Under the pieces are notes generated by a model. It was not told the origin of the DNA. It saw only the letters and a program-made list of their open reading frames with translations, and ran no database searches. Of a DNA stretch of 64,000 nt, positions 1 to 34,593 are shown one piece after another (the stretch's first letter is position 1; every line of letters starts with the position of its first letter). Location of the stretch: the NCBI RefSeq assembly GCF_044647545.1, contig NZ_CP172818.1; one strand, 5' to 3'. The translations under genes and the position numbers were made by a program. The DNA is from Escherichia coli (GTDB taxonomy: Bacteria; Pseudomonadota; Gammaproteobacteria; Enterobacterales; Enterobacteriaceae).

Positions 1-8
1 ATCTTCAA

Positions 9-2348
9 TTACTCGTTATCCGGGTTAAGACGACGACGGCTGATAATACGCAGCAAACGCCACAGTACCCATGCCAGCAGCACGACGCTGATTGCCGCCA
101 GCACCGCCAGCAGAATCGGATGGTTTGCCAGGGCATACCATAAGCGTTCGAACCACGGCAGATGGCCAACGTAATAGACGTCGCCAACGCGTAGGCTATT
201 GATACCGGACTCGCGGATCACCGCGACCGAACCGAACATGGTGGCGCGTTTGCCGCTATCGTTCACCGCATCGTTAAGCATTTCATAACCGCGTGGGCTA
301 TCTGCCAGCAGCGCAATCACGCTACGCTGGTCGTTATACGGCGACTGGAAGCCAATCACCGCTGCCATCGCACCGGAAGAGGTCAGCGTTGACTGAGTTT
401 CTGCCGCGCGATCGCTCTCGTCCGGTACAATGCCGGGGAACGGGGTCTGGCGCATCGGCGTTTTCACCCAGCTTTCGGTCGCCTGCACCAACAGATCGAT
501 CTGCTTATCGTCTTTCAGTTTGTCCGGGATACCACCGACGATCATGATGTCGGCATCTTTGCCCTGAATGGTGCTGCCATCATCGGTCACCGTCAGGTTA
601 ATCGCCGGGAAGCCCGTCTGCGCACCGATAAAGCCAACGGTATTCAGCAAGGTTTCCATCTGTGCTTCGTTAGGCGCTTTCGGCATCACGGTGATGGTTT
701 GTGACAGATCCGCCATCCGGCTGAACGGGAAGCCCGCGTTAGCAAAGGCGCGTAGATCCGGCATCGGAATGAAGTGGTAATACTTCGAGAAGTCGATGGT
801 GGAATCATCACCAATCACCACATGATTCTGCACCGGCTGGAAGGTAATGCAGTTATCCACCGAACCGCCCGGCATCGGGTTCATATACTCAAAGTCAAAG
901 CGCAGCTGGTTGGTCGCGCCCAGTTTCAGCGCCGGAATAGAGACATCCGTTTTGCCATCCAGCAAACCTTGTAATACCGGAATCCGCAGCAGCAGGCGGT
1001 TCGCCTCCTGTTTACTGCTCAGGTTGAAGGATTGCAGGAACTGGTTATTCAGGCTGATATCCATCCGCGAACTGTCTTTCACCGGCGGCATGGTGTAGCG
1101 ATAGTTGATATCCATATCAATGCCGGTACTGCGCATCAGGTAGAGATCCGGCGGCAGATTTAGCGAAACGTTAATCGCTGCTGGCTCAAGACCGCTGGAT
1201 TGTAACTGTTCTTCATAGGTTTTCAGTTCACCAAAGGTGACCGGACGATCGGTACGCACCCAGTTCGGCGCATCGTACGGCTTACGCGGTAGCAGCGGTT
1301 TCACTTCATTCACTACCACGCTTTCACCACGGAACAGAATGTTACCCTGAGCGATACCTTTCGCTGCCTGCAACAGGTCTTTGTCGTCACGACCAAACAC
1401 CACCAGCAGTTTGACGTAAGGATTCTGCGGATGGTTGATCATCTCAATCACCGGGGCTTTTACCGCCGGATGATCGTGCAGGAAGTCCGGGCGTTTGTCA
1501 TTAGTGGCAAAAACAATGGCATTGCGATTCGGCAGTTGGTTATAGAGCACCGGGAAATTCTGCCCACGCCAGCCAGAACGCGAACCAAACCACGAGGCGA
1601 CAATAGCTGATGCTTGTTGCAATCCAGTATCTGGCGTACCCGCAAAGACCATCGGCAAGGTGTTGGTGCGGTTATCACGCGGGTCAAAGAATGGTACCGG
1701 GAAGTGTGACAGGTCATTCTTCACATTCAGGGTCTGATAGGTCAAATCCAGTCCACTGCTCCGCCCAACATCCAGCCAAAGCGTGGTGCTGGCCGGGTTT
1801 TCGCACACGTCCTGATAATGGCCGACAAACTCCAGCCGCACACGGTTGAAGTCGGTAATAAACAGTGGGTTAATGGGCATTTGCGCCAGCGTTTTTTTAC
1901 CCAACTGTTCTTTGGTCACTGGCAGCACGCCCATCAGCTCATCATTGAGATAAACCTTTAACTGCGACTGGACAGGCAGTAACGATGGCGATGGCGTGTA
2001 TTCGAGGTTGAGCATCGCCTTCGTCACCACTTCATCGCTGCGCATACCAAACTCAATGCTGCCGTTCGGGTTAATGCCACGTAGCACCATGCTGCCCGGC
2101 GGCGGCGCGATTTGCGCAAAGGTCAGCTTCACATCACGCGAAGGACCGTTCTGCGCCACGATGGGGGCATCAGCGCCCTGCACGCCTGGCATCACTTGCC
2201 CCACCTGCGGATTTTGTTCCGTCTGGGCGGCTACAGCTGGCTCAGCATTGATCAGTGGTTGCGTTGCTGGCGTCGCCTGCGTCATGAAAGAGGGGAACGC
2301 ACTCATCCCCATAGCCACTGCACAAATCCAGAATAGTTTTCTTTTCAT
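9..2348 (-). CDS. bcsB: Cellulose synthase periplasmic subunit BcsB (c-di-GMP-regulated cellulose synthase regulatory subunit)
   Basis: Minus-strand ORF 9..2435; N-terminus trimmed to the Met of MKRKLFWICAVAMG (signal peptide) at 2348, giving 779 aa, the length I recall for E. coli BcsB; immediately downstream of bcsA as in the bcsQAB operon. Confidence 0.9.
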   Translation of the reverse strand: MKRKLFWICAVAMGMSAFPSFMTQATPATQPLINAEPAVAAQTEQNPQVGQVMPGVQGADAPIVAQNGPSRDVKLTFAQIAPPPGSMVLRGINPNGSIEFGMRSDEVVTKAMLNLEYTPSPSLLPVQSQLKVYLNDELMGVLPVTKEQLGKKTLAQMPINPLFITDFNRVRLEFVGHYQDVCENPASTTLWLDVGRSSGLDLTYQTLNVKNDLSHFPVPFFDPRDNRTNTLPMVFAGTPDTGLQQASAIVASWFGSRSGWRGQNFPVLYNQLPNRNAIVFATNDKRPDFLHDHPAVKAPVIEMINHPQNPYVKLLVVFGRDDKDLLQAAKGIAQGNILFRGESVVVNEVKPLLPRKPYDAPNWVRTDRPVTFGELKTYEEQLQSSGLEPAAINVSLNLPPDLYLMRSTGIDMDINYRYTMPPVKDSSRMDISLNNQFLQSFNLSSKQEANRLLLRIPVLQGLLDGKTDVSIPALKLGATNQLRFDFEYMNPMPGGSVDNCITFQPVQNHVVIGDDSTIDFSKYYHFIPMPDLRAFANAGFPFSRMADLSQTITVMPKAPNEAQMETLLNTVGFIGAQTGFPAINLTVTDDGSTIQGKDADIMIVGGIPDKLKDDKQIDLLVQATESWVKTPMRQTPFPGIVPDESDRAAETQSTLTSSGAMAAVIGFQSPYNDQRSVIALLADSPRGYEMLNDAVNDSGKRATMFGSVAVIRESGINSLRVGDVYYVGHLPWFERLWYALANHPILLAVLAAISVVLLAWVLWRLLRIISRRRLNPDNE

Positions 2349-2358
2349 CGCGTTATCA

Positions 2359-4977
2359 TCATTGTTGAGCCAAAGCCTGATCCGATGGTTGTGCCGTTTC
2401 GCTCCGCTCCGGGCGGCGCGGAATAAACGATACAACCCAGGAAACCAGAGAAGTCAGCACACGGAATATGCCCTTCACCGAAGAAGGCGCAAACTCCGCC
2501 AGATGGCGGTAGCCACGGAAGCCGAGCTTCAGAATATCCAGCAGACTTTCCAGCGGCTTATCTTCCGGATAGCTGTCCTGCCAGAGCGCCCATGTATCCG
2601 CACGGGCAAACGTACACTGCACAAAATCGATATGTTGCTGGGTGGTGAGCGGCATTAATTTCAGCCCAACTTCATTACCCATCACGCGCGCCACCTGGGT
2701 CGGGAAGACGTATTCCTGCTGACCGCGTTTAAGCAACAGATTCACTTTCTGCCCTTCCAGAATCTGCGCCTGACCGTTGATCTTGATCCCCAAACCACCG
2801 TCGGAGAAATCCTGAACGGTACACGAGAAGAGGTGACCATCTTCGCGGGCAATTGCCGCGGGCATCGTCATCTCCACGCGGTGCGATCGGCGTACCTGTT
2901 TGCTTTCTACCGATACCGCAACTGCGCCGCCAAGAACAATCAGGTTGTAGAATACCCACACCATACTGACGACCACGGTGAGCATCTCGGTTGGCGGGCC
3001 ATAGAAGTAGCGCCAGATGCCTACCGCAACGCCCACCAGGTTGAGCAGAACAAGGAAGATGTAGGGCCGCGAGATCACCCAGTCGACGTACTCTTCTTCC
3101 ACCAGTCCACCTTTGGCGGTGACGTTAAATTTGCCTTTGTGCGGGTTAATCAGCGCCACCAGCGTCGGTGGTGCGATATACCACGCCAGCACCGTTTCGT
3201 AGATTTCACTCCAGAAAGAGTGGCGATATTTGCCCTGGATCTTCGAGTTGGTCAGGCTGGCATGAATCATATGCGGCAGCACGAACAGGGCGATCATCAA
3301 CGCTGGCGCATAGATGATGTAGGCATGCAGCAGCAGGAACGCCAGCGGCGCAGTCAGGAAGATCAGTCGTGGAATGCCCGACAAGAAGTGGAACATGGCG
3401 TTGACATAGCACAGCCGCTGAGCAAACTTCAGCCCTTTACCGGTGAGCGGGTTATCGAGACGGAAGATTTGCACCATCCCGCGCGCCCAGCGAATACGCT
3501 GACCGATATGCGCCGACAGACTTTCGGTCGCCAGCCCCGCCGCCTGCGGAATACGCATATATGCAGAGGTGTAGCCACGACGGTGCAAACGCAGAGAAGT
3601 ATGCGCATCTTCGGTTACCGTTTCGACAGCAATGCCGCCAATCTCATCCAGCGGCTTACGGCGAATCACCGCACATGAACCGCAGAAGAAGGTGGCGTCC
3701 CACATATCGTTGCCATCCTGCACCAGACCATAGAACAGCGTACCTTCGTTCGGTGTTTTACGGAAACGTCCCAGGTTGCGTTCAAACGGGTCCGGTGAGA
3801 AGAAGTGGTGCGGCGTCTGCATCATCGCCAGTTGTTTTTCTTTCAGGAACCAGCCCATGGTCATTTGCAGGAACGATCGCGTTGGTACGTGGTCGCAGTC
3901 GAAAATCGACACGAACTCGCCTTTGGCATATTTCAGCGCATTGTTGATGTTGCCCGCTTTCGCATGTTCATGAGTGGTACGGGCGATATATTTCACCCCC
4001 ACGTTTTGCGCAAACTGGCGAAACTCTTCCCTGCCGCCGTCATCAAGGATCCAAATGTTCAGCTTGTCTTTCGGCCAGTCGATACCCAGCGAGGCGTAAA
4101 TCGTATTTTTCACCACGTTGAGATCTTCGTTGTAAGTCGGGACAAAGATATCCACCGACGGCCACAGCGACATATCTTTCGGCAATGGCACCGGCTGACG
4201 ATTCAGCGGCCATACCACCTGGAAGTAACCGAGCACCAGCACAATCCACGCGTACGTTTCGGCGAACAGCAGAATAAGCCCGCACACCAGGCTGACCGGA
4301 TCGTCCCAGTTCAGCGTAGAGGTGTAGCGCCACCAGATATAACGGCAAGAAACGGTCAGCGACAGCACAATCAACATTAGCGCCGAGAAGCGCCCCGGCA
4401 TCCGCCGTACGATCAGCGCTACACCCCACAGCAGCATCAGGAAGATAAACTGCGCCAGCGGGTTAAACGGCTGGGTAACGCAGATTAACGCCAGAATCAG
4501 CGAGAAGGTGACGATGATACCGAGGATCAACCGCCGCGCCCCGGCGCTCAAATGGCCGAGTTCTTTTTTCTCATCGAGATGCTGTGTTTTATGGCTAACG
4601 CGCTCAGGCAGCTCGTTCATCCATTGATGGTAACGTCCACGAATATTCTGCAGACCTGAAAATGTCCGCCTGCGCGGTTTCGGCGTTTCTTTGCGCGATG
4701 TACCGATCAGTAACCAGCATGTTTGAATGAGATAACGGACCGGGTCCAGCGGACGCGGACGCGAGGCGTTGATATGCGGATACAGGTTTTTATGTTCTGC
4801 GCGAATACGCTGCCAGCGCGGGTGCTCCAGCGGAATAAAAATCCAGGCCAGGATCAACCAAAAACAGCCGAGCGTCGCGCTGAAAGCCGACGCACCGTGA
4901 CGACGATAATCGCGATAACGCCCGATAAGCCGCGCGTTGACCGGCGGGATAAGCAACCACCGGGTCAGGATACTCAT
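2359..4977 (-). CDS. bcsA: Cellulose synthase catalytic subunit BcsA (GT2 glycosyltransferase with C-terminal PilZ domain)
   Basis: ORF 2359..5025 trimmed to MSILTRWLL start (872 aa); multiple TM segments; GT2 motifs (DDG, DCDH, QRIRWARG) and a PilZ-like RxxxR region visible in the translation. Confidence 0.9.
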   Translation of the reverse strand: MSILTRWLLIPPVNARLIGRYRDYRRHGASAFSATLGCFWLILAWIFIPLEHPRWQRIRAEHKNLYPHINASRPRPLDPVRYLIQTCWLLIGTSRKETPKPRRRTFSGLQNIRGRYHQWMNELPERVSHKTQHLDEKKELGHLSAGARRLILGIIVTFSLILALICVTQPFNPLAQFIFLMLLWGVALIVRRMPGRFSALMLIVLSLTVSCRYIWWRYTSTLNWDDPVSLVCGLILLFAETYAWIVLVLGYFQVVWPLNRQPVPLPKDMSLWPSVDIFVPTYNEDLNVVKNTIYASLGIDWPKDKLNIWILDDGGREEFRQFAQNVGVKYIARTTHEHAKAGNINNALKYAKGEFVSIFDCDHVPTRSFLQMTMGWFLKEKQLAMMQTPHHFFSPDPFERNLGRFRKTPNEGTLFYGLVQDGNDMWDATFFCGSCAVIRRKPLDEIGGIAVETVTEDAHTSLRLHRRGYTSAYMRIPQAAGLATESLSAHIGQRIRWARGMVQIFRLDNPLTGKGLKFAQRLCYVNAMFHFLSGIPRLIFLTAPLAFLLLHAYIIYAPALMIALFVLPHMIHASLTNSKIQGKYRHSFWSEIYETVLAWYIAPPTLVALINPHKGKFNVTAKGGLVEEEYVDWVISRPYIFLVLLNLVGVAVGIWRYFYGPPTEMLTVVVSMVWVFYNLIVLGGAVAVSVESKQVRRSHRVEMTMPAAIAREDGHLFSCTVQDFSDGGLGIKINGQAQILEGQKVNLLLKRGQQEYVFPTQVARVMGNEVGLKLMPLTTQQHIDFVQCTFARADTWALWQDSYPEDKPLESLLDILKLGFRGYRHLAEFAPSSVKGIFRVLTSLVSWVVSFIPRRPERSETAQPSDQALAQQ

Positions 4978-5726
4978 GATGCACTCCCGACTGGCGTTTT
5001 CAGCCCGGAATAGTTCAACAGGCACCAGTTAGCCAGCGTCAGTATCTCTTCAGCCGCCAGCGCATCACTGCGGTATTCACCGACTGGTTGCTTAGCCGCC
5101 AGGCATTGAGCCATCGCTTCATCACGATGAATGAGTATTGGCAGTAATCGGCGCTGGCTTTGCAACCAAAGCTGGTAAATATCGTCCTGAACCTGACTGC
5201 CGATACGGAAGTCATTAATCAAAATATGCGCGCCATCCGGCAGCGCTTGCTGATGCAGTCGGATATGGCAGTTGGCATCCACATTGACGATTGCCAGCGA
5301 GTGATCGCACAAACTCAGCAGCTGGTGGGTTATCTGTGAGGCATCACGCGGTAAGTCAATTAAAATCCACTGGTAACGCCCGCTGGCTTTTAGTTGCTGT
5401 AAGCCGGAGCAAATATCGCTCAGCCGGGTTTGCCAGTGCTGTGGATTTTCTTGTTCTTCAATGGATAACTGACCAAAAGGCAGCAAATCGAGCTGCGAGG
5501 TATAGCGCAACCCGGCGTCACGCCAGTCCTGGCCATCCAGCATAGCTCTGGCCCAGCCCTGACGGTGGGTAAAATCAACGTTAAATGACAGGCGCAACAA
5601 GTTGTCCGGGCAGGCATCGACCACCAGGACATTTTCTCCCAACATTTGTAATGACCAGGCTAATGCGGCGGTGATGGTTGTTGTCCCCACGCCTCCCCGC
5701 ACCCCCTGCAATCCCAGTACGGCCAT
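4974..5726 (-). CDS. bcsQ: Cellulose biosynthesis protein BcsQ (MinD/ParA-like ATPase); intact reading frame
   Basis: 250-aa ORF starting MAVLGLQGVRGGVGTTT (deviant Walker A); overlaps bcsA start by 4 nt; codon 6 is TTG (plus-strand caa at 5709-5711), so there is no premature stop. Confidence 0.85.
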   Translation of the reverse strand: MAVLGLQGVRGGVGTTTITAALAWSLQMLGENVLVVDACPDNLLRLSFNVDFTHRQGWARAMLDGQDWRDAGLRYTSQLDLLPFGQLSIEEQENPQHWQTRLSDICSGLQQLKASGRYQWILIDLPRDASQITHQLLSLCDHSLAIVNVDANCHIRLHQQALPDGAHILINDFRIGSQVQDDIYQLWLQSQRRLLPILIHRDEAMAQCLAAKQPVGEYRSDALAAEEILTLANWCLLNYSGLKTPVGSAS

Positions 5727-5737
5727 TCACCAATCCC

Positions 5738-5926
5738 CTACTTTTGTTGCGCAAACTCTGCCAGCAACGGCCAGCGTTTTAATGCCGCGGCCAACTGTTC
5801 GCGTTGGGAAATATCGGCATAATCAATATCAGGCAGTGAAAATGCCTGCTTTAACGCCAAAATATCATTCTGGAAGATATAGCCTATCGCGGGATCAGGC
5901 AGAGTATCTGGTTCATTGTTATTCAT
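5738..5926 (-). CDS. bcsR: Cellulose biosynthesis protein BcsR (YhjR), small DUF2629 protein
   Basis: ORF 5738..5968 trimmed to MNNNEPDTLPDP start (62 aa); first gene of the bcsRQAB operon, divergent from bcsE. Confidence 0.7.
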   Translation of the reverse strand: MNNNEPDTLPDPAIGYIFQNDILALKQAFSLPDIDYADISQREQLAAALKRWPLLAEFAQQK

Positions 5927-6197
5927 TTGCTTGATCCCTATGAAATAACCGTACCGTTCATGAGACAATTCTAACTGTGAGCATTTCGCCGGTTTATTGT
6001 TTACGGCGAGACGGGAATGTGCTCACTTTTTGACTTTCCGTTACGCAACAGAAAAAGTTAAAAACGAAAAGACTAAAATCACATGTCTTGTGACCTGCTA
6101 AATTGATTCACATGCTAAATCTGATAAGTTTTAATTTCAATGGTAGGTTTATTTCTTAGCTTTCGCTAGTAAACTGATAATCAGACAAAATGTTGAC
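5927..6197. promoter_or_regulatory. Divergent intergenic promoter region between bcsR(QAB) and bcsE(FG)
   Basis: AT-rich 270 bp spacer between divergently oriented operon first genes; individual promoter elements not mapped. Confidence 0.4.
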
Positions 6198-7769
6198 ATG
6201 AGGGACATTGTGGACCCTGTATTCTCTATCGGTATCTCATCATTATGGGATGAGCTGCGACATATGCCAGCAGGCGGCGTCTGGTGGTTTAACGTCGATC
6301 GCCATGAAGATGCTATCAGTCTGGCGAATCAAACAATTGCATCCCAGGCTGAAACCGCACACGTCGCGGTCATTAGCATGGACAGCGATCCAGCGAAAAT
6401 CTTTCAATTAGATGATTCTCAAGGGCCGGGAAAAATAACATTATTTTCAATGCTAAATCATGAAAAAGGTCTATACTATTTGGCCCGTGATTTGCAGTGT
6501 TCTATTGATCCCCATAATTACCTTTTTATTCTTGTTTGCGCAAATAACGCATGGCAAAACATTCCTGCCGAGCGGCTTCGCTCATGGTTGGATAAAATGA
6601 ATAAATGGAGCCGGCTAAACCATTGTTCGCTTTTGGTAATTAATTCCGGAAATAATAACGATAAACAATTTTCATTGTTACTTGAGGAATACCGTTCACT
6701 TTTTGGTCTTGCCAGTTTGCGTTTTCAGGGCGACCAACATTTGCTGGATATTGCTTTCTGGTGCAACGAAAAAGGGGTCAGCGCCCGTCAGCAGCTTAGC
6801 GTTCAGCAACAAAATGGTTGCTGGACATTAGTTCAACACCAAGAGGCGGAAATCCAACCACGCAGCGACGAAAAACGCATTCTGAGTAATGTTTCTGTAC
6901 TTGAAGGTGCGCCGCCGCTATCGGAACACTGGCAACTGTTCAACAATAACGAAGTCCTGTTTAATGAAGCCCGTACCGCTCAGGCGGCGACGGTGGTCTT
7001 TTCTTTACAACAAAATGCGCAAATCGAGCCACTGGCCCGCAGCATTCATACTCTGCGTCGCCAGCGCGGTAGTGCGATGAAAATCCTCGTACGGGAAAAT
7101 ACCGCTAGCCTGCGCGCCACCGATGAACGTTTGTTATTGGCCTGCGGTGCAAATATGGTTATCCCATGGAATGCCCCACTCTCCCGCTGTCTGACGATGA
7201 TCGAAAGCGTGCAAGGGCAGAAGTTTAGTCGCTATGTGCCGGAAGATATCACTACCTTGCTGTCAATGACCCAGCCGCTCAAACTGCGTGGTTTCCAGAA
7301 GTGGGATGTGTTCTGTAATGCCGTCAACAACATGATGAATAACCCTCTATTACCTGCCCACGGTAAAGGCGTTCTGGTTGCCCTACGTCCGGTACCGGGT
7401 ATCCGCGTTGAGCAAGCCCTGACGCTATGTCGCCCTAATCGCACCGGCGATATCATGACCATTGGCGGTAATCGGCTGGTGCTGTTTCTCTCATTCTGTC
7501 GGATTAACGATCTGGATACCGCGTTGAATCATATTTTCCCATTGCCTACTGGCGACATTTTCTCAAACCGTATGGTCTGGTTTGAAGATGATCAAATCAG
7601 TGCCGAGCTGGTGCAGATGCGCCTGCTTGCCCCAGAACAATGGGGCATGCCGCTGCCTTTAACGCAAAGTTCTAAACCGGTCATCAATGCCGAGCACGAT
7701 GGTCGCCACTGGCGACGAATACCAGAACCAATGCGACTGTTAGATGATGCTGTGGAGCGCTCATCATGA
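6198..7769 (+). CDS. bcsE: Cellulose biosynthesis protein BcsE (c-di-GMP-binding GIL-domain protein)
   Basis: 523-aa ORF starting at ATG 6198; expected position and length for BcsE (YhjS). Confidence 0.85.
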
Positions 7770-7957
7770 TGACCATCAGCGATATCATTGAAATTATTGT
7801 CGTTTGCGCACTGATATTTTTCCCGCTGGGCTATCTGGCGCGGCACTCTTTGCGACGCATTCGCGACACCTTACGTTTGTTCTTTGCTAAACCTCGTTAT
7901 GTTAAACCGGCCGGGACGTTACGCCGCACGGAAAAAGCCAGGGCAACCAAAAAATGA
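7766..7957 (+). CDS. bcsF: Cellulose biosynthesis protein BcsF (small membrane protein)
   Basis: 63-aa ORF with one hydrophobic helix ([18 protein letters not shown]); 4-nt overlaps with bcsE and bcsG indicate translational coupling. Confidence 0.7.
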
Positions 7958-9633
7958 CTCAATTTACGCAAAATACCGCCATGCCTTCTTCCCTCTGGCA
8001 ATACTGGCGCGGCCTTTCCGGCTGGAACTTCTATTTTCTGGTTAAGTTCGGCCTGTTGTGGGCGGGATATCTTAACTTCCATCCGCTCCTCAATCTGGTG
8101 TTTGCCGCGTTTCTGCTGATGCCCATTCCGCGCTACAGCCTGCATCGCTTACGCCACTGGATTGCCCTGCCGATCGGCTTTGCTTTGTTCTGGCATGACA
8201 CCTGGTTGCCTGGCCCGGAAAGCATAATGAGCCAGGGTTCGCAGGTGGCGGGGTTCAGTACCGATTATTTAATCGACCTTGTCACACGCTTTATTAACTG
8301 GCAGATGATTGGGGCCATTTTTGTTTTATTAGTGGCCTGGTTATTCCTGTCACAATGGATTCGCATTACCGTTTTTGTGGTTGCCATTCTGCTATGGCTG
8401 AACGTACTTACCCTGGCGGGACCAAGTTTCTCCTTGTGGCCAGCCGGTCAACCAACGACCACTGTAACAACGACGGGTGGTAACGCAGCGGCAACCGTTG
8501 CGGCGACGGGTGGCGCACCGGTAGTGGGTGATATGCCCGCACAAACTGCACCGCCAACAACGGCGAACCTTAACGCCTGGCTGAATAATTTCTATAACGC
8601 GGAGGCGAAACGTAAATCAATCTTCCCGTCTTCGCTGCCCGCTGATGCTCAGCCATTTGAACTACTGGTGATTAATATCTGTTCGCTTTCCTGGTCGGAT
8701 ATTGAAGCCGCCGGGTTGATGTCGCATCCGCTGTGGTCGCATTTCGATATTGAGTTCAAGAACTTTAACTCCGCCACCTCCTACAGTGGCCCGGCGGCGA
8801 TCCGTTTACTGCGCGCCAGCTGCGGGCAGACTTCGCACACTAATCTGTATCAACCGGCAAATAACGACTGCTATCTGTTTGATAACCTGTCGAAACTGGG
8901 CTTTACCCAGCACCTGATGATGGGACATAACGGCCAGTTCGGCGGTTTTTTGAAAGAAGTTCGCGAAAATGGCGGCATGCAGACCGAATTGATGGATCAA
9001 ACAAATCTGCCGGTTGTTTTGCTGGGCTTTGATGGTTCGCCGGTTTATGACGATACCGCCGTGCTTAACCGCTGGCTGGACGTTACCGAAAAAGATAAAA
9101 ACAGCCGTAGTGCCACGTTCTACAACACGCTTCCACTGCATGACGGCAACCATTATCCGGGCGTCAGCAAAACAGCGGATTACAAAGCGAGGGCGCAGAA
9201 ATTCTTTGATGAACTGGACGCCTTCTTTACTGAACTGGAGAAATCGGGTCGTAAAGTGATGGTGGTCGTGGTGCCAGAACACGGCGGCGCGCTGAAGGGC
9301 GACAGAATGCAGGTATCTGGCCTACGTGATATCCCTAGCCCGTCTATCACAGACGTCCCCGTTGGGGTGAAATTCTTCGGCATGAAGGCACCACATCAGG
9401 GGGCACCGATTGTCATCGACCAACCGAGCAGCTTCCTGGCTATCTCCGATCTGGTGGTTCGCGTTCTTGATGGCAAGATTTTCTCCGAAGACAATGTTGA
9501 CTGGAAAAAACTCACCAGTGGGTTGCCACAAACAGCACCGGTCTCCGAGAACTCAAATGCAGTAGTTATTCAATACCAGGATAAACCGTACGTTCGCCTG
9601 AACGGCGGCGACTGGGTGCCTTACCCGCAATAA
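7954..9633 (+). CDS. bcsG: Cellulose phosphoethanolamine transferase BcsG (alkaline-phosphatase superfamily)
   Basis: 559-aa ORF; N-terminal TM helices, a Thr/Ala/Gly-rich linker ([20 protein letters not shown]), then a C-terminal catalytic domain; correct position after bcsF. Confidence 0.85.
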
Positions 9634-9718
9634 GAACGAAAAAGGCCGCAGAGTTTCCCCCTGCGGCCTGATCCGGGCGCAAATTGCCATTACGGCAGCC
9701 TGACGCCCACATGACACG

Positions 9719-9826
9719 TTACTTCCGCTTATTCAGCCAGTTCACGATCAGACTGGCAAGAATGCCAGCAATGACCGGAGCCGCTAAATCATGCCAGAAG
9801 GCCATGCCCAGCTCTGCGAGCGTCAT
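9719..9826 (-). CDS. ldrD: Type I toxin LdrD (35-aa small toxic membrane peptide)
   Basis: Minus-strand reading MTLAELGMAFWHDLAAPVIAGILASLIVNWLNKRK (35 aa) from ATG at 9826 to stop at 9719; matches the Ldr toxin family sequence. Confidence 0.8.
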   Translation of the reverse strand: MTLAELGMAFWHDLAAPVIAGILASLIVNWLNKRK

Positions 9827-9871
9827 ATAGCCGCCTGAGTTGTAATGACAACGTTTCGCGGCTATTCTTGA

Positions 9872-9938
9872 GTGGTCTAGAGTCAAGATTAGCCCCCGTG
9901 ATGTTGTCAGGTGCATACCTGCAACGTGCGGGGGTTTT
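9872..9938 (+). ncRNA. rdlD: Antisense antitoxin RNA RdlD (approximate boundaries)
   Basis: Plus-strand GC hairpin (cccccg...cggggg, 9893-9934) followed by TTTT lies in the ldrD 5' leader, where the Rdl antisense RNA is expected; the 5' end is a guess. Confidence 0.4.
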
Positions 9939-10301
9939 CTCTCTCCAGCAACCAATGCCACCAGGGATAAAGCCCCCGCAACATTGCGCCTCACCGGAAC
10001 CTTTCCGGCTTGCCACTGATTCTACGATTGCTTTTTACCGTCAGCACCCGGCAATCTTCCTCATTGCGTGATGCATTCCAGCTTAATTTCTTTATTTGCA
10101 ATAGTTGCAGTTCATATCCGGGCTGACTCCAGACTGGTAGTGAAATGCGCATTTTTGTAGAATTGCGCCTCCTCGCGACCTCCCCAGTGAATCTGTTGCC
10201 TCATTTTTTACATACTGCGTATTCGACTTCTCCACCTGTTGCGCAAGAGAAACTGGGTTTATTCATTTTTGCGAGGCCGACTTCTTTCTGGACAGGACTT
10301 T

Positions 10302-11573
10302 ATGCAGCACAACACACTACCGAAACACGATCAGAAAATGCCGTTTACACGCTACGACTTCGGCTGGGTTTTATTATGCATAGGCATGGCGATTGGTGCC
10401 GGAACCGTGCTGATGCCAGTACAAATTGGCTTGAAGGGAATTTGGGTATTTATTACCGCAGCGATCATTGCTTATCCTGCCACCTGGGTAGTGCAGGACA
10501 TTTATTTAAAAACCCTTTCTGAAAGCGATTCCTGTAATGACTACACCGATATTATCAGTCATTACCTGGGGAAGAACTGGGGAATTTTCCTCGGGGTTAT
10601 CTACTTTTTGATGATTATCCACGGGATTTTTATCTACTCTCTCTCCGTGGTTTTCGACAGCGCCTCGTACCTGAAAACCTTCGGTTTAACCGATGCCGAT
10701 CTTTCACAATCTCTACTTTATAAAGTCGCCATTTTCGCCGTACTGGTGGCAATTGCGTCTGGTGGTGAACGATTACTGTTTAAGATTTCCGGGCCAATGG
10801 TGGTGGTCAAAGTAGGGATTATCGTCGTGTTCGGTTTTGCGATGATCCCGCACTGGAATTTCGCCAATATAACCGCCTTCCCGCAAGCCTCCGTCTTTTT
10901 CCGCGATGTCCTGCTTACCATTCCCTTTTGCTTCTTTTCTGCGGTATTTATTCAGGTACTTAACCCAATGAATATTGCCTATCGTAAACGGGAAGCGGAT
11001 AAAGTACTGGCAACCCGGCTCGCGCTGCGTACCCACCGAATTAGTTATGTCACGCTCATCGCGGTGATCCTGTTTTTTGCCTTTTCGTTTACCTTCTCAA
11101 TTAGCCACGAAGAAGCCGTTTCTGCCTTTGAACAAAATATCTCGGCACTGGCACTGGCCGCGCAGGTGATCCCTGGGCATATCATTCATATCACCTCTAC
11201 GGTGCTGAATATCTTTGCCGTACTGACCGCATTCTTTGGCATTTATCTCGGTTTCCACGAGGCCATTAAAGGCATTATTCTCAATCTGTTAAGCCGAATT
11301 ATTGATACCAGGAAAATTAATTCACGCGTGCTGACTCTGGCGATCTGCGCTTTTATCGTCATTACGTTGACGATTTGGGTTTCGTTTCGTGTATCGGTGC
11401 TGGTGTTCTTTCAGTTGGGAAGCCCGTTATATGGCATTGTGTCGTGCCTCATTCCGTTTTTCCTGATCTATAAAGTCGCACAACTGGAAAAACTTCGCGG
11501 ATTTAAAGCCTGGCTGATTCTGCTTTACGGCATTTTGCTATGCTTGTCGCCACTGTTGAAGCTGATTGAGTAA
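10302..11573 (+). CDS. yhjV: Inner-membrane transporter YhjV (HAAAP family, serine/threonine/aromatic amino acid permease-like)
   Basis: ORF 10239..11573 trimmed to [12 protein letters not shown] (423 aa); polytopic membrane protein. Confidence 0.8.
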
Positions 11574-11602
11574 ACCGGAGCGCACGGCCCCGGTTTTGTG
11601 AG

Positions 11603-12607
11603 TTAACGCTGCGGATTTTCATCCTGATCAACAGCAAAACAAGCTACCAGTTGACCGCCGTAGTCTTTTAGCTGCGGCTGCAACTGGGTGCAGGGGCCGA
11701 AGCGCCGACGACAGCGGGCGTTAAACGCGCAGCCCGGCGGTGGATTGAGCGGGCTTGGCAGTTCACCGGTGAGCTTGATGCGCTCGCGGCGATCGTCCGG
11801 GTTCAGGCGCGGCGTCGCGGAGAGTAGCGCCTGAGTGTACGGATGACGCGGGTTATTGAAGATTTGGTCCTTCGTTCCCTTCTCCACGCAGCGGCCCAGG
11901 TACATCACCATCACTTCATCGGCAATGTGCTCAACCACTGACAGGTCGTGGGAGATAAAGACATAAGACAGCCCCAACTCCTGCTGCAAATCCATCATCA
12001 GGTTGAGCACCTGCGCACGCACTGAGACGTCCAGCGCGGAAACCGGCTCATCGGCAATCACCACATCCGGGTCGAGCATCAGACCACGGGCAATGGCGAT
12101 ACGCTGACGCTGACCGCCGGAGAACATATGCGGATAGCGGTCGTAATGCTCGGTTTTCAGGCCGACTTTCGCCATCATCGACAGGGCTTTTTCCCGACGC
12201 TGATCTTTGCTTAAGCTGGTATTAATAAGCAGCGGCTCTTCAAGAATTTGCCCAACTTTTTTACGCGGATTTAGCGAACCATAGGGATTCTGAAAGACGA
12301 TCTGGATTTTCTGCCGACGCAACTTCTGCGCCTGCGGATCGTGCTTGAGCAGATCCTGCCCCTGGTAATACAGCTCACCACCGGTGGGCGTTTCGATCAT
12401 CGTCAGTAACCGACCGAGGGTCGATTTACCGCAGCCAGATTCACCTACTACTGCCAGCGTTTTGCCACGTTCAAGGTTAAACGAAACGCCGTCCAGCGCC
12501 TTCACCAGACGTTCCGGCGCGAACATACCTTTCTTCACCGGATAATGTTTTTTCAGGTCGATAGCCTGCAACAGCGGTTGTTGCGAGGTGGCCTCTTGCG
12601 TACTCAT
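11603..12607 (-). CDS. dppF: Dipeptide ABC transporter ATP-binding protein DppF
   Basis: 334-aa ORF; Walker [13 protein letters not shown] signature SGGQRQR and Walker B DEPVSALD visible. Confidence 0.9.
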
Positions 12608-13587
12608 AGTGTCGGCCTCCCGGCATCATCAAGTGGGTAGTGGCATTTGGACTGACGCCCGTCAGCGAGCATATTCAGCGCCGGTTCTTCAGCGCGGCAT
12701 TTGTCAGTGGCGTAGGGGCAGCGCGGGTTAAGCAGGCAGCCGTTCGGACGGTCATACTTGCCGGGAACAACACCTGGCAACGACGCCAGACGTTCTTTAT
12801 CCTGAGCAAATTCCGGCAGCGCACGCAGCAATGCCTGAGTATACGGGTGACGCGGCGCATGGAAGATGGCGTGCGCATCGCCCGTTTCTACTACCTGGCC
12901 TGCATACATCACGATAATTTTATGTGCCGCTTCCGCCACCAGCGCCAGGTCATGGGTAATTAACACCAGCGCCATGTTCTCTTTCTGCTGTAGCTCCAGC
13001 AGCAGTTCGATGATTTGCGCCTGAATGGTCACGTCCAGCGCGGTGGTCGGTTCATCGGCAATCAGCAGTTTTGGCCGACAGGCAATCGCTATGGCGATCA
13101 TCACGCGCTGGCTCATGCCGCCGGAAAGCTGATGCGGGTAAACATCCAGACGCGATGCCGGATCGGGAATACCGACCTGATTCAGCAGGTCAATCGCCCG
13201 CTGACGGCGGGTACTTTTGTTGCCGCCCTGATGCACCTTAATCGCTTCCATAATCTGGAAACCCACGGTGTAGCACGGGTTAAGGCTGGTCATCGGGTCC
13301 TGGAAGATCATCGCCACTTCGGCACCCACCAGGTTGCGGCGCTCTTTTTCTGAGATACGCTGTAAATCCTGACCGTTAAACTCCAGCTTTTCCGCCATTA
13401 CGCGGCCCGGATAATCAATCAGCCCCATAATCGCCAGCGAACTGACCGATTTACCAGAGCCGGACTCACCCACAATCCCGACCACTTCGCCCTGTTTTAC
13501 GCTGTAGCTGATGCGGTCTACGGCGCGGAACGGTGCGCTTTCGTCGCCGAAATGCACCGATAATTTATCTACATTTAATAACGCCAT
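12604..13587 (-). CDS. dppD: Dipeptide ABC transporter ATP-binding protein DppD
   Basis: 327-aa ORF; Walker A GESGSGKS and signature LSGGMSQR; 4-nt overlap with dppF. Confidence 0.9.
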
Positions 13588-13597
13588 CTCGAACCTC

Positions 13598-14500
13598 TTA
13601 CTGCTTCAGTTTGGGATCGAGCGCGTCACGCAGACCGTCACCCATCAGGTTAAATGCCAGCACCGTCAGCAGTATCGCCAGACCCGGGAAGGTCACGACC
13701 CACCAGGCGCTTTGCGCAAACTGCAACACGTCGGAGAGCATAGTGCCCCACTCCGGTGTTGGCGGCTGAGCCCCCATGCCGAGGAAACCAAGAGCAGCCA
13801 TATCGAGAATGGCGTTAGAGAAACCGAGCGACGCCTGAACAATCAGCGGCGCAAGGCAGTTCGGGAAGATGTTAATAAACATCTGGCGCATTGCCCCGGC
13901 ACCCGCCACGCGAGACGCGGTGACGTAATCGCGGTTAACTTCCACCAGCACGGCGGCGCGGGTTAAGCGCACATAATGCGGCAGCGCAACGAAGGTTAGC
14001 GCCAGCGCGGCGTTACCAATCGACGGGCCGAAAATCGCCACCAGCACCAGTGCCAGCAGTAGACTTGGCAGCGCCAGCATGATATCGACCACGCGCATGA
14101 TGATGTTATCGACCAGACCGCCAAAGTAACCAGCGATCAGGCCGAGAATAACGCCCATAATCAGCGATAACACCACTACCAGACAGCCAACCAGCAGCGA
14201 CAAGCGCGCGCCGTACATCAGCCGCGACAGCACATCACGCCCCACGTCATCAGTGCCCAGCAAGTGCGCCATGCTGCCGCCTTCCTGCCAGGCTGGCGGG
14301 GCGAGCAGTGCATCGCGGAACTGTTCCGCCGGGTTATAGGGTGCAATCCAGTTGGCAAAGATCGCGATAAACAGCACGATGACGACGTAAACCAGCCCGA
14401 CAACCGCGCCTTTGTTGCGTTTAAAATAGTGCCAGAACTCCTGTAACGGGGTCATCGGCACCGGTGCGCTAATCACTTTATTTTCAGTAACCTGTGACAT
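13598..14500 (-). CDS. dppC: Dipeptide ABC transporter permease DppC
   Basis: 300-aa polytopic membrane ORF in the expected operon position. Confidence 0.9.
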
Positions 14501-14509
14501 GATGTCCCC

Positions 14510-15529
14510 TTACTTCTTATGACGAATACGCGGGTTCACCACGCCGTACAGCAAATCGACCAGCAGGTTGACGAGGATAATCATCGTCGCCACCAGCAAT
14601 ACGCCGCCCTGCACTACCGGATAATCGCGGCGTTGCAGTGCGTCAATCAACCAGCGCCCCAGACCGGGCCACGAGAAGATGGTTTCAGTCAGAATCGCCC
14701 CCGCCAGCAATGTTCCCACCTGCAGGCCGATAACGGTCACCACCGGCAGCATCGCGTTACGCAGCGCATGGACGATAATCACCCGCATCCGGGTAAGACC
14801 TTTGGCACGCGCGGTGCGGATATAATCTTCGCCCAGCACTTCCAGCATCGAGGAGCGCGTCATACGCACAATGACCGCCAGCGGGATGGTACCCAGCACA
14901 ATGGCGGGTAGGATCATATGGGCGACGGCATCGATAAAGTTACCGTCTTCACCCCAGATGGCGGTGTCGATCAGCATAAAACCGGTTAACGGATTGGAAT
15001 CATCGAGGAACACCATGTCGCTCACACGACCGGAGACAGGCGTCAGGTTCCAGTGCACCGAAACCAGCATGATCAGCATCATGCCCCACCAGAAAATTGG
15101 CATCGAGTAGCCGGTCAGCGCCAGGCCAACCGCTGTGTGATCGAAAATGGAACCACGTTTAACCGCAGCCAGCACACCAACCGGAATACCGACTGCCGTC
15201 GCAAAAATCATCGCGCAGACGCCAAGTTCCAGCGTAGCCTGAAAGCGCGGCACGAACTCTTCCCATACCGGAATTCGGCTTTTCATGGAAATGCCTAAAT
15301 CACCGTGCATTACGCCCCAAATGTAATGGAGATACTGCTGCCACATCGGTTTATCTAAGCCGAGTTCAGCCAGCAATTGCGCGTGACGCTCTGGGGAGAT
15401 CCCACGCTCGCCCGCCATGATCATCACCGGATCGCCCGGGATCATGTGGACAAAGGCAAATGTGAGAAGGGTAATACCGATAAACGTGGGGATGACGAGT
15501 CCCAAACGTCGGAGAATAAACTGCAACAT
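14510..15529 (-). CDS. dppB: Dipeptide ABC transporter permease DppB
   Basis: 339-aa polytopic membrane ORF in the expected operon position. Confidence 0.9.
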   Translation of the reverse strand: MLQFILRRLGLVIPTFIGITLLTFAFVHMIPGDPVMIMAGERGISPERHAQLLAELGLDKPMWQQYLHYIWGVMHGDLGISMKSRIPVWEEFVPRFQATLELGVCAMIFATAVGIPVGVLAAVKRGSIFDHTAVGLALTGYSMPIFWWGMMLIMLVSVHWNLTPVSGRVSDMVFLDDSNPLTGFMLIDTAIWGEDGNFIDAVAHMILPAIVLGTIPLAVIVRMTRSSMLEVLGEDYIRTARAKGLTRMRVIIVHALRNAMLPVVTVIGLQVGTLLAGAILTETIFSWPGLGRWLIDALQRRDYPVVQGGVLLVATMIILVNLLVDLLYGVVNPRIRHKK

Positions 15530-15602
15530 AACCCGGATTCTCTATAATGACCCGCAGCCTGGAACTGCGTGTCTGTATTGCTCACAAATCAATTCCCGCC
15601 TT

Positions 15603-15672
15603 TGTGGGACAGGGAATGAAGTATTGCTGCCGGATGGCGCTGCACGCAGAGGCACAGCGCCACCGGGTATGG
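15603..15672. repeat. REP-like palindromic stem-loop in the dppA-dppB intergenic region
   Basis: Imperfect palindrome ccggatggcgctg...cagcgccaccgg in the 150 bp spacer downstream of dppA; a candidate REP or attenuating hairpin. Confidence 0.45.
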
Positions 15673-15679
15673 CTTTTAA

Positions 15680-17287
15680 TTATTCGATAGAGACATTTTC
15701 GAAGTGATGTTTGCCTAATGGATCAACCACATAGCCTTTAACTTCTTTGCGTACCGGTTCAAACACGGTGGAGTGAGCGATGATCAGTGCCGGAGCCTGA
15801 TCGTGCATCACGACCTGTGCTTGTTTGTACAGTTCAACACGTTTATTGTGGTCGTCGGTAGCACGCGCCGGTTGAATCAGATCTTCAAACGGTTTGTAGC
15901 ACCATTTTGAGTAGTTGGAGCCTTGTTCAGAGGCGGCGCAGCTGAACAGGGTGGCGAAGAAGTTATCCGGATCCCCGTTATCGCCAGTCCAGCCCATCAT
16001 TACCGTCTGATGCTCGCCATCTTTCGCACGCTTGAGGTACTCACCCCATTCGTAGGTGACGATTTTGGCCTGCACGCCCACTTTCGCCCAGTCTGCCTGA
16101 ATCATCTCCGCCATGCGGCGAGCATTCGGGTTATACGGACGTTGTACTGGCATTGCCCACAGGTCGATGGAGAAACCTTTTTCCAGACCCGCTTCTTTCA
16201 GCAAGGCTTTCGCTTTTTCAGGATCGTAAGTGTAGTCCTGAACGTCGTCGTTATAGCCCCACATGGTTGGCGGGATCAGGTTTTTCGCTGATACGCCCGC
16301 GCCCTGATAAACTGCTTTGATGATGGCGTCTTTGTTCACCGCGTAGGTCAGAGCCTGGCGAACTTTCACGTCATCCAGTGGTTTTTTCTGCACGTTATAC
16401 GAGAGATAACCGACATTCAGCCCCGGCATTTCCATCAGGTTGATGGATTTATCCTGCTTCATGCGGGCGATATCTGCCGGGTTCGGGTACGGCATCACCT
16501 GGCATTCGTTCTTCTGCAATTTCGCGTAACGCACGGAAGCGTCAGGAGTAATAGAGAAGACCAGCGTATCGATCTTCGGTTTGGTGCCCCAGTAGCCATC
16601 AAACGCTTTATAGCGAATACGGGAATCTTTCTGGTACTGCTGTAACTGGAACGGGCCGGTACCGATTGGGTTGAGATCCAGTTTTTCCGGTGTACCGGCT
16701 TTCATCATCGCGTCAGCATATTCTTTTGACAGAATAGAGGCGAAGTCCATTGCCAGGTCAGCGAGGAACGGCGCTTCCGGGCGAGTCAGCACAAACTGAA
16801 CGGTGTTATCGTCCACCTTTTTCACTTCGCTGATCAGCTCCGGCAAGCCCATGCCTTCAAAGTATTCGTAGCTGCCGCCAGAAACTTTATGGTACGGGTT
16901 TTGCGCGTTTTTCTGACGATCGAACGAGAACACCACGTCATCGGCGTTCAGTTCGCGCGTCGGTTTGAATTCTTTATTGTCGTGCCACTTCACACCTTTA
17001 CGCAGATGGAAGGTATAGGTTTTACCGTCTTCGCTGACTTCCCACTTTTCAGCGAGGCCCGGGATCACTTCGGTGGTGCCGATTTTAAATTCAACCAGAC
17101 GGTTATAAAGCGGTACGGAAGAGGCGTCATAGGTGGTGCCGGAGGTAAACAGCTGCGGGTTAAACCCTTCCGGAGATCCTTCTGAGCAATAAACCAGAGT
17201 TTTAGCCTGAACACTTGCTGCGACGGTCATAGCCACCAGGCTGAGACCAAGCTTCAGCATCCCTGACTTTTTCAAGGAAATACGCAT
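15680..17287 (-). CDS. dppA: Periplasmic dipeptide-binding protein DppA
   Basis: 535-aa ORF with N-terminal signal peptide (MRISLKKSGMLKLGLSLVAMTVAASVQA); solute-binding protein family 5. Confidence 0.9.
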   Translation of the reverse strand: MRISLKKSGMLKLGLSLVAMTVAASVQAKTLVYCSEGSPEGFNPQLFTSGTTYDASSVPLYNRLVEFKIGTTEVIPGLAEKWEVSEDGKTYTFHLRKGVKWHDNKEFKPTRELNADDVVFSFDRQKNAQNPYHKVSGGSYEYFEGMGLPELISEVKKVDDNTVQFVLTRPEAPFLADLAMDFASILSKEYADAMMKAGTPEKLDLNPIGTGPFQLQQYQKDSRIRYKAFDGYWGTKPKIDTLVFSITPDASVRYAKLQKNECQVMPYPNPADIARMKQDKSINLMEMPGLNVGYLSYNVQKKPLDDVKVRQALTYAVNKDAIIKAVYQGAGVSAKNLIPPTMWGYNDDVQDYTYDPEKAKALLKEAGLEKGFSIDLWAMPVQRPYNPNARRMAEMIQADWAKVGVQAKIVTYEWGEYLKRAKDGEHQTVMMGWTGDNGDPDNFFATLFSCAASEQGSNYSKWCYKPFEDLIQPARATDDHNKRVELYKQAQVVMHDQAPALIIAHSTVFEPVRKEVKGYVVDPLGKHHFENVSIE

Positions 17288-17857
17288 TATTCTGCTCCAA
17301 TTGTGATGTTTGTTGTTTTAACCCTTTGCAGTGGGTTGTCGCCGCCTGACCTTTTTTGTTTTTTGCCCGGTCGGGTCAACGTTATGAGGTGGGGATGCCG
17401 TACTAATTAACATCAGTGTAACAGTGCGGATCCTCCAGAAAATGCCCCTCGTGACCTACAATCTGTCAACAGAATGTGAAAACGTCAATACAGCCAACCG
17501 GGATTTACACCAACGGTGAGAATCAACAAACAAAGATTAAAAAAACTTCAAACAGCTATTTGCAGCAGAGAAATTTGTGCTACGCCAACACAACCAGAAC
17601 AATCAGCTTAATATTTAGCAACATTTGGTGATTAAGTTTTATGCATTTAATGAAAAAAATCTGAGGTAAAGGTGGATATCTGAGCGATTAATACCATGAA
17701 CGCTAAAACGCACAGGGGAAAATGCCAGCGCCAGCCATAAGTAACGCAAAAAAAGATTTAAGCAAATATAAAAAAAGACAATGGTTTCTGTCACAAATCC
17801 GTTAATGGATAGTGAGATATGGGGCGCAAATTTGGCAGGGAAATGTGTGGTGTGTAG

Positions 17858-17960
17858 ATCGGATAAGGCGGTCGCGCCGCATCCGACAATGGGCCGGTAC
17901 ATTTGCCTGATGCGACGCTGACGCGCCTTATCAGGCCTGCATCGAGTCGAACCTCCTTGT
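17858..17960. repeat. BIME/REP element (two inverted REP units)
   Basis: ggataaggcggtcgcgccgcatccgaca followed by gcctgatgcgacgctgacgcgccttatcaggcctgc; matches the REP consensus pattern (GCCGGATGCGGCG...CTTATCAGGCCTAC). Confidence 0.6.
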
Positions 17961-18139
17961 CCCCCGATAAGACCGGTATTTCAATCACCACATGAGACTT
18001 CAGACGCATACAAGCTCTGCATCAATTAGCATGCTAATTTCGCCTTTGCAGTGACAGCTGATATACACGTGCTTCTGGCCAGCCCTGCGGCCTTTAACAG
18101 GTCAGACTGGCAGTGTCCGCACCTCAGGTTCTGGATGAC

Positions 18140-18690
18140 TTTCGCTTTTTCTCCAGCTCCAGGCCCTTTTTTTCCAGGAGATGCTCCTGCATGGCTTTCA
18201 GATATTCATTTTTGGGCGGAAAATACGCGGGTCTTTTTTTCTCTCTTTCCGGGTTCTGTTTTCCTCGTTTTTATGGGTGTCATCAAAAAGGGGTTTGCTT
18301 TTCTCCTTCCTGCGCCTTAAAAAGGCCTCATCACCAGATTTTTTGGTTCCTTTTTTCCCATTTTTTAACCGGTTTTGGGTGGGGAAGTTTAAACCGGGGG
18401 GCGCCCGGGGGAGAGACACAATAACCGAGAGGATAAAAAAACACGCAAAGTTTTTTTTTTGGAGAAAAGAGCGCTGGTGTGTGTGTACAATGGTGTGAGA
18501 GGGGGGAGGAGAAAAAAAAAAAATATAGTGTGGGAGGGGGGGGTGTGAAAGAGGTAATATTGTTGTGGTAGAGAAGATATGACGACATGAGGGGAGGTGA
18601 TGTTTTATGGGGGGGTGTTTTTTTTAATATATGTGTGTTATATACTGTGCTTTTAGATGTGAGATAATGTTTGATATATGGGCAGTTCAT
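18140..18690. other. Anomalous low-complexity, homopolymer-rich, C-depleted tract (non-coding; probable artefact or foreign/synthetic insert)
   Basis: Runs of T (up to 10), A (12) and G (8), GT dinucleotide repeats, near absence of C on the plus strand after about 18470, and no plausible ORF; composition unlike the flanking E. coli sequence. Confidence 0.6.
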
Positions 18691-18765
18691 GGCGCGTCTT
18701 ATCAGGCCTACGTCGAATCGAACCTCCCCGCCCCCGGGGGTTCTCTTCCTCATGAGCTACAGATG

Positions 18766-18801: not shown

Positions 18802-18878
<77 letters not shown>

Positions 18879-30635: not shown

Positions 30636-30788
30636 TTACTCTTTCAATTTGCAGGCTAAAAACGCCGCCAGCTCATAATTCTCCTGTTTAATATGCAATT
30701 CACACAGTGAATCTCTTATCATCCAGGTGAAAAATAAAAGCGTGAAACAAATCACTATTAAAGAAAGTAATCTATATTTCTGCGGCAT
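30636..30788 (-). CDS. hokA: Type I toxin HokA (Hok/Gef family small membrane peptide); locus disrupted by IS150
   Basis: 50-aa reading MPQKYRLLSLIVICFTLLFFTWMIRDSLCELHIKQENYELAAFLACKLKE; the IS150 left end begins 33 bp upstream of the start codon. Confidence 0.8.
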   Translation of the reverse strand: MPQKYRLLSLIVICFTLLFFTWMIRDSLCELHIKQENYELAAFLACKLKE

Positions 30789-30867
30789 TCCCAGCCTCCT
30801 GTGTTGATTTCCACCGAGTATGTACTGCACCCATTTTGTTGGACGATGAAATGGAATAGCCCCTGAT

Positions 30868-32502: not shown

Positions 32503-32514
32503 ATAACGACGTTA

Positions 32515-34584: not shown

Positions 34585-34593
34585 AGCCGCCTC

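Follow-up and report, generated by a model that had tools for sequence, protein, structure and literature searches.

The bcs locus and the bcsQ reading frame

The stretch of DNA analysed here (64 kb, referred to as the window) carries two divergently oriented groups of bcs genes, with the following features.

9-2348, minus strand: bcsB, intact, 779 aa
2359-4977, minus strand: bcsA, cellulose synthase catalytic subunit, intact, 872 aa
4974-4977, minus strand: ATGA overlap of the bcsQ stop (TGA) and the bcsA start (ATG), sequence ...GCATCATGAGTATCC...
4974-5726, minus strand: bcsQ, uninterrupted 250-aa ORF encoding a MinD/ParA-type SIMIBI ATPase indispensable for cellulose secretion
5709-5711, minus strand: bcsQ codon 6, TTG (Leu); TAG (amber) in the K-12 allele
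5738-5926, minus strand: bcsR (yhjR), intact, 62 aa, encoding the BcsQ partner (NF040717, PF10945)
5927-6197, no strand: divergent intergenic (regulatory) region between bcsR and bcsE
6198-7769, plus strand: bcsE, intact, 523 aa
7766-7957, plus strand: bcsF, intact, 63 aa
7954-9633, plus strand: bcsG, phosphoethanolamine transferase, intact, 559 aa

All seven bcs genes within the 64-kb window (B, A, Q, R, E, F and G) are therefore intact, and all have the same lengths as in K-12. Neither bcsA nor bcsB contains an internal stop, and their products differ from the K-12 proteins at three and 12 residues, respectively. BcsR differs from K-12 at one residue, BcsE at eight and BcsG at six, and BcsF shows no difference; BcsA, BcsR, BcsE and BcsG have no differences from the ST648 proteins. 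The bcsB DNA is identical to that of the ST648-type genome FDAARGOS_497, as is the bcsR/bcsE intergenic region, which has five substitutions and one single-base indel relative to K-12.

The bcsQ gene begins on the minus strand with the codons ATG GCC GTA CTG GGA TTG CAG, the ATG lying at 5726-5724, and its 250-codon translation showed no internal stop codon between 4974 and 5726. The initial annotation had described bcsQ as open with TTG at codon 6, and the ORF reading and translation confirm this. Upstream, 11 nt separate the bcsR stop from the bcsQ ATG. At the other end the 4-nt overlap with bcsA, which is likewise present in the MG1655 annotation, is a translational-coupling junction. The overall context, with bcsR upstream, bcsA downstream and overlapping, and bcsEFG divergent, is alike at the MG1655 and ST648 loci.

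The predicted BcsQ protein scored 540 bits against the NCBIfam equivalog NF007460 (cut-off 399 bits) across residues 1-250 of 250, 292.7 bits against TIGR03371 (cut-off 157.85) and 379 bits against Pfam PF06564, and the BcsQ chains in the PDB match it at E = 3e-167. MinD, ParA and ArsA models matched weakly, far under the cut-offs of those families. Given the NF007460 and PF06564 scores, together with ∼98% identity to the crystallised E. coli protein, 4974-5726 is a genuine gene rather than a chance ORF. The protein is the same as WP_000279524.1, which is annotated as BcsQ in ST648 genomes.

The crystallised BcsQ of E. coli 1094 (PDB 6YBU, 6YAR and 9FNN; PMC7840130, PMC11470070), which has been seen as a BcsR2Q2 crystal and within the Bcs macrocomplex, is identical to the window protein at 246 of 250 positions. 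The four substitutions (at 172, 197, 207 and 249) all lie away from the functional residues named for BcsQ in ATP-sandwich dimerisation and secretion, which are R10, T16, T17, C39, D150, N152, R156 and N171 (PMC7840130), and every one of these is kept in the window protein. In the BcsQ dimer the sandwiched ATP is contacted by N152 and R156 in trans and by N171 in cis, with D150 forming a salt bridge, and the importance of these four ATP-holding residues has been demonstrated by mutation (PMC7840130). BcsQ has its fold family and P-loop region in common with the SIMIBI ATPases MinD, ParA and Get3, but differs from them in that R10 and T16 replace two lysines and Cys39 replaces the catalytic Asp. 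Both the deviant Walker A motif (RGGVGTT) and Cys39, at the catalytic-water position, are features of enterobacterial BcsQ (PMC7840130) and are found in the window BcsQ. The need for BcsQ in cellulose secretion in vivo is established in E. coli 1094 and K-12 (PMC5014196, PMC7840130, PMC6685106).

Codon 6 in K-12 and across E. coli

The MG1655 bcsQ (b3534, NC_000913.3 3695233-3695985) is a pseudogene by annotation and reads TAG at codon 6. Base-by-base comparison located this change at nucleotide 17 of the gene (window position 5710), where the window has T and MG1655 has A. The statement in the initial annotation that K-12 carries TAG at this codon was thus correct, as judged from the MG1655 alignment and from the literature. 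The K-12 stop abrogates bcsQ and the expression of downstream bcsA (PMC6685106), and PMC5014196 and PMC7397504, citing Serra et al. 2013, describe the conversion of the W3110 codon from TAG to TTG in strain AR3110, with cellulose restored. Both the amber codon and its repair are already known, and are textbook material in biofilm research.

The K-12 pseudogene (MG1655, W3110) shares with the window its length of 753 nt, its position in bcsRQABZC and its ATGA overlap with bcsA; however, codon 6 is TAG in cellulose-negative K-12 and TTG in the window. In total, 16 differences from MG1655 were found in the 753 nt of bcsQ, and the 15 besides codon 6 comprise 13 synonymous and two missense changes (M197I and E207Q). 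Every ST648-type genome examined carries the latter pair, a natural variant that might tune BcsQ function.

An 81-nt probe carrying TTG matched 3,543 complete genomes exactly, and the corresponding TAG probe matched 348. Of the 5,247 genomes with the locus, 1,355 have an additional SNP under the 81-nt probes and lie outside these two counts. All 64 of the 348 TAG carriers that were inspected are K-12 laboratory derivatives. On this count TAG is unlikely to be a natural allele of the ST10 complex, although the other 284 carriers may include a small natural reservoir. ST167, ST617 and ST744 have a bcsQ nonsense mutation in common, at a codon that the published text does not state (PMC10881479). 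Overall, TTG is the wild-type form of bcsQ codon 6 in most E. coli by far. Since the codon-6 stop is a quirk of K-12 laboratory strains and TTG is the wild type species-wide, the TTG in the window is ordinary.

Lineage of the window

Compared with MG1655, the window shows ∼97.4% identity over all 64 kb (97.3-97.5% in each aligned block), as against the >99.9% outside engineered sites that would mark a K-12 lineage. This ∼2.6% divergence is that seen between phylogroups. In contrast, the bcs locus (window 1-9700), which has 218 differences from K-12, has none from FDAARGOS_497, and the same genome shows no differences over window 10040-17920 and 32270-36500. Moreover, MS6198, ECONIH1, FDAARGOS_497 and others match window 33000-57000 at 100% identity; MS6198 and strain ST648 have been typed as phylogroup F, ST648 (PMC8281228). 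In the ST648-type genomes ST648 (CP008697) and FDAARGOS_497 (CP033850) both the bcsQ DNA and the BcsQ protein are the same as in the window. The window thus agrees with ST648 reference genomes across the region, and by sequence identity its background is ST648-type, phylogroup F, the MLST and Clermont loci lying outside the 64 kb.

The initial annotation had regarded the window as K-12-type, a view contradicted by the overall identity and by the 15 further substitutions in bcsQ. The gene lengths that it took as a clue reflect conservation at the level of the species, and its other suggestion, a close non-K-12 relative, was right as to non-K-12 but not as to close.

It had also treated IS150 at hokA as a K-12 feature. 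In the window this element does match MG1655 in both its insertion nucleotide and its orientation, and 43 nt are absent at the K-12-type junction. However, the hokA-IS150 junction is carried by 1,573 of 5,426 complete genomes, from many backgrounds and diverse hosts, and does not single out K-12. An 80-nt sequence spanning the IS150 junction had no 100% match among complete genomes, the best being 98.8%.

The window differs from the ST648-type genomes in structure only and away from bcs, namely at the ldr array (9.6-10.1 kb; copy number), at ∼18 kb, where the IS3 element of dppA-proK is a remnant (17.9-18.8 kb), and at IS150 (30.7-32.3 kb). It has a single, K-12-like copy of ldrD and no intact copy of IS3 at dppA-proK. 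No complete genome in the collection matched the whole window exactly, and none matched window 1-24000, or 17.6-18.9 kb, at 100%. A noisy, homopolymer-inflated stretch was observed at ∼18.2-18.7 kb, so the assembly is not uniformly reliable. That the combination of ST648-identical sequence with K-12-like structure (hokA-IS150, single ldr, no intact IS3) represents real biology rather than an assembly artefact is considered very doubtful. If real, the K-12-like structural states could belong to a distinct ST648-related sublineage, or could reflect an IS150-mediated inversion or deletion at hokA that recurs across phylogroups.

Origin of the allele and predicted cellulose proficiency

The bcsQ gene of the window is almost certainly an ordinary wild-type allele, and its host a natural E. 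coli of ST648 type (phylogroup F) rather than K-12. A K-12 derivative with a repaired bcsQ, whether by AR3110-like engineering or by spontaneous reversion of TAG to TTG, would account for the sense codon TTG that the window has in common with AR3110, for the position and orientation of IS150 beside hokA and for the single ldrD copy. However, such a strain should equal MG1655 except at codon 6, as AR3110 does, whereas the window carries the 15 other bcsQ substitutions, the 218 differences over the bcs locus and a divergence of ∼2.6% throughout; the wide occurrence of the IS150 junction removes a further point in its favour. This divergence is no artefact, because independent ST648-type genomes show zero differences. 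The AR3110-like origin proposed initially is consequently dismissed as having almost no chance of being correct. A natural strain closely related to K-12 (phylogroup A, ST10 complex) in which the ancestral TTG was kept is given the same very small likelihood; its gene order and lengths would match K-12 throughout, as would the K-12 type of IS150 junction, but neither the ∼2.6% divergence nor the 100% identity to ST648, phylogroup F genomes over the bcs locus and over the distal 24 kb would be expected of it. A sequencing or assembly error at codon 6 might be suspected in an assembly with the inflated stretch described above. Against this, the 81 nt around codon 6 are exact in the 3,543 independent complete genomes, and the 9.7-kb bcs region has no difference from FDAARGOS_497, which makes an error the most improbable account of all.

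The reading as a wild-type ST648-type allele leaves a separate question, which is whether the strain makes cellulose. The sequence, the allele state, the lineage, the integrity of the ORFs and the conservation of functional residues are established; from these we infer that cellulose would be produced. BcsQ and BcsR together form the ATP-bound BcsR2Q2 complex, which the BcsAB cellulose synthase needs in order to assemble and to work; bcsQ comes second in bcsRQABZC, and its stop overlaps the bcsA start. In K-12, a T-to-A change produced the amber codon 6, with loss of BcsQ and, per published work, abolition of downstream bcsA expression. The window never had this lesion, and retains the ancestral TTG together with uninterrupted bcsRQAB and bcsEFG, which is why its visible structural genes for phosphoethanolamine-cellulose are predicted to be competent. 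The initial annotation had gone as far as to predict a functional bcsRQAB/bcsEFG locus; all seven genes are indeed intact, and proficiency stands as a prediction.

The window begins at the start codon of bcsZ, with bcsZ and bcsC just outside and csgD, dgcC and rpoS elsewhere, and for this reason proficiency is predicted rather than asserted. The strain could be cellulose-negative despite its intact window genes, through a lesion in bcsZ, bcsC, csgD, dgcC/adrA or rpoS, or through regulation. In favour of such a loss, bcs loss-of-function mutations have been found in 74 of 76 common STs (PMC10881479), and bcsZ, bcsC and the regulators do not lie within the window. On the other hand, bcsZ and bcsC are annotated as intact in genomes identical over the bcs locus. 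In addition, among ∼100 ST648 genomes surveyed, only 13 had any bcs truncation, and these affected bcsQ (2), bcsG (10) and bcsB (1) only (PMC10881479, Supplementary Data 3), all of which are intact here. An outside lesion is judged unlikely.

E. coli normally has an intact bcsQ; the finding matters little in itself, and its use lies in annotation. The bcs structural genes of the window should be annotated as functional, with no pseudogene label carried over from K-12, and its background is to be taken as ST648-type (phylogroup F) and ExPEC-like, not as K-12; IS150 at hokA is unfit as a K-12 marker. In some ExPEC clones, raised virulence has been associated with cellulose loss (PMC10881479), and for that reason an intact bcsRQAB-EFG is a modestly useful strain descriptor.

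The bcsQ allele and its codon 6

The features of the bcs locus in the window are as follows; each of the seven genes has an ATG start, no internal stop and the K-12 length.

9-2348, minus strand: bcsB
2359-4977, minus strand: bcsA
4974-5726, minus strand: bcsQ
5711-5709, minus strand: bcsQ codon 6, TTG
5738-5926, minus strand: small ORF directly upstream of bcsQ, identified as BcsR
6198-7769, plus strand: bcsE
7766-7957, plus strand: bcsF
7954-9633, plus strand: bcsG

Read from the window, bcsQ begins with an ATG at 5726-5724, continues GCC GTA CTG GGA TTG CAG, and is open throughout its 250 codons, so that its description in the initial annotation (start, first codons, TTG at codon 6, open frame) proved exact to the base. 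The product scores 540 bits over its full length against the NCBIfam equivalog NF007460 (cut-off 399), 293 bits against TIGR03371 and 379 bits against Pfam PF06564. It is identical at 246 of 250 positions to the E. coli BcsQ chains in 6YBU, 6YAR and 9FNN, where BcsQ was solved as BcsR2Q2 and inside the Bcs macrocomplex. All of the residues flagged as important by Abidi et al. (PMC7840130) are retained, namely R10, T16 and T17 of the deviant Walker A, C39, the salt-bridge residue D150, the trans-acting N152 and R156, and N171.

The MG1655 annotation (NC_000913.3) lists bcsQ (b3534, 3695233-3695985) among its pseudogenes, and base-by-base comparison gives ATG GCC GTA CTG GGA TAG where the window has TTG at codon 6. 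The two alleles differ at 16 of 753 positions, comprising codon 6, 13 synonymous changes, M197I and E207Q. The K-12 lesion is already published: W3110 bcsQ has TAG at codon 6, and its change to TTG gave the cellulose-proficient AR3110 (PMC5014196, PMC7397504), while the early stop abolishes expression of both bcsQ and downstream bcsA (PMC6685106). The alignment and these reports bear out the K-12 allele given in the initial annotation.

BcsQ is a SIMIBI-family ATPase that forms with BcsR an ATP-sandwich BcsR2Q2 complex; secretion cannot proceed without this complex, whose binding partners are BcsE and the BcsA synthase (PMC7840130). The bcsQ stop and bcsA start overlap by 4 nt (ATGA, 4974-4977), a junction of the translational-coupling type that would make polarity of a bcsQ stop on bcsA likely. 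Because codon 6 is TTG, the consequences of the early stop do not apply to the window.

Exact matches to an 81-nt probe centred on the codon-6 SNP were counted in complete genomes. The TTG form matched 3,543 genomes and the TAG form 348; the other 1,355 genomes carry an extra SNP within the probe and fall in neither count. The TAG carriers inspected (64 of 348) were without exception laboratory strains of K-12, among them MG1655 derivatives, DH5alpha, DH1, C600, J53, HMS174, RV308 and NCM3722. PMC10881479 describes a bcsQ nonsense mutation common to ST167, ST617 and ST744, which might be the codon-6 TAG. TTG is thus the wild type and not unusual, and TAG is the exception.

An ST648-type background

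The initial annotation had read the window as having K-12-type features despite the intact bcsQ. However, five collinear BLAST blocks spanning the 64 kb are each only 97.3-97.5% identical to MG1655, and the bcs locus (1-9700) shows 218 differences from K-12 and none from FDAARGOS_497 (CP033850). There are likewise no differences from FDAARGOS_497 at 10040-17920 and 32270-36500, and 33000-57000 is 100% identical to MS6198, ECONIH1, FDAARGOS_497 and others. MS6198 (CP015834) and strain ST648 (CP008697) have been typed as phylogroup F, ST648 (PMC8281228). Judged from these identities, the window reads as natural ST648-type sequence with no K-12 background.

A repaired, AR3110-like K-12 origin had also been proposed. 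Such a strain would match K-12 except at one base, whereas here bcsQ alone carries 16 differences and the whole 64 kb is diverged, and this origin is ruled out. The K-12 gene lengths offered as a clue lend it no support, as ST648 genomes share them.

The remaining clue was the insertion element beside hokA.

about 30636-30788, minus strand: hokA
30821-32263: IS150, in the exact K-12 position and orientation, adjoining hokA

The element is indeed present as in K-12, with 99.3% identity to the K-12 copy. It is nevertheless no K-12 marker, because an 80-nt probe over the left IS150-hokA junction was covered over at least 80% of its length in 1,573 of 5,426 genomes, whose varied sources include humans, poultry and frogs. 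None of the 5,426 matched the window's 80-nt junction exactly, the C at 30814 being unique.

Structural departures from ST648 genomes

The window departs from ST648 genomes in structure only, at three places. At IS150, ST648-type genomes with otherwise identical flanks carry the element inverted relative to the window; their left junction is longer by 43 nt, and CACTT looks to be a target duplication. The other two lie among these features:

9719-9826, minus strand: ldrD, the one Ldr type I toxin copy within 9636-10036
15680-17287: dppA
18040-18700: 3' part of an IS3-family element, degraded and with inflated homopolymers
18802-18878: tRNA-Pro(CGG)

K-12 and strain ST648 (CP008697) also have a single ldr copy, whereas in FDAARGOS_497, with identical flanks, four copies stand in tandem; either the copy number varies or the repeat collapsed during assembly. 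Between dppA and proK, where ST648 genomes carry an IS3-family element, the degraded copy has perfect edges but ∼81% identity overall, with 26 gaps. No complete E. coli genome gave a close full-length match (best 88.3%), and the stretch looks less like genuine variation than like a repeat that was poorly assembled or collapsed.

All three departures (single ldr, no intact IS3 at dppA-proK, the IS150 arrangement) lean towards the K-12 arrangement while the nucleotides stay ST648-identical, a pattern that may reflect an assembly guided by a reference or collapsed at repeats. All lie outside the bcs locus, where comparison with independent genomes shows no errors.

Integrity of the bcs locus and predicted cellulose production

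The seven bcs products differ from those of K-12 by 0 to 12 residues each. Against strain ST648 (CP008697) the sole difference is BcsB residue 357 (1279-1281, minus strand), which is Pro in the window and FDAARGOS_497 and Leu in CP008697; bcs-gene DNA is identical to that of FDAARGOS_497. Between bcsR and bcsE, the intergenic sequence has five substitutions and one indel of a single base relative to K-12. bcsZ and bcsC, which fall just past window position 1, are annotated as intact in genomes identical over the bcs locus. A survey of 76 STs found a truncated bcs gene in 13 of ∼100 sampled ST648 genomes (bcsQ in 2, bcsG in 10, bcsB in 1; PMC10881479), and all three genes are intact in the window.

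The locus is intact, with all seven ORFs open, and the K-12 allele given in the initial annotation stands, while its K-12 background and AR3110-like option do not. The bcs structural genes are predicted, with good support, to be competent; the source strain may be cellulose-positive, which would depend on off-window genes and regulation. The bcsQ of the window is the ordinary, already known wild-type allele in an ST648-type strain.
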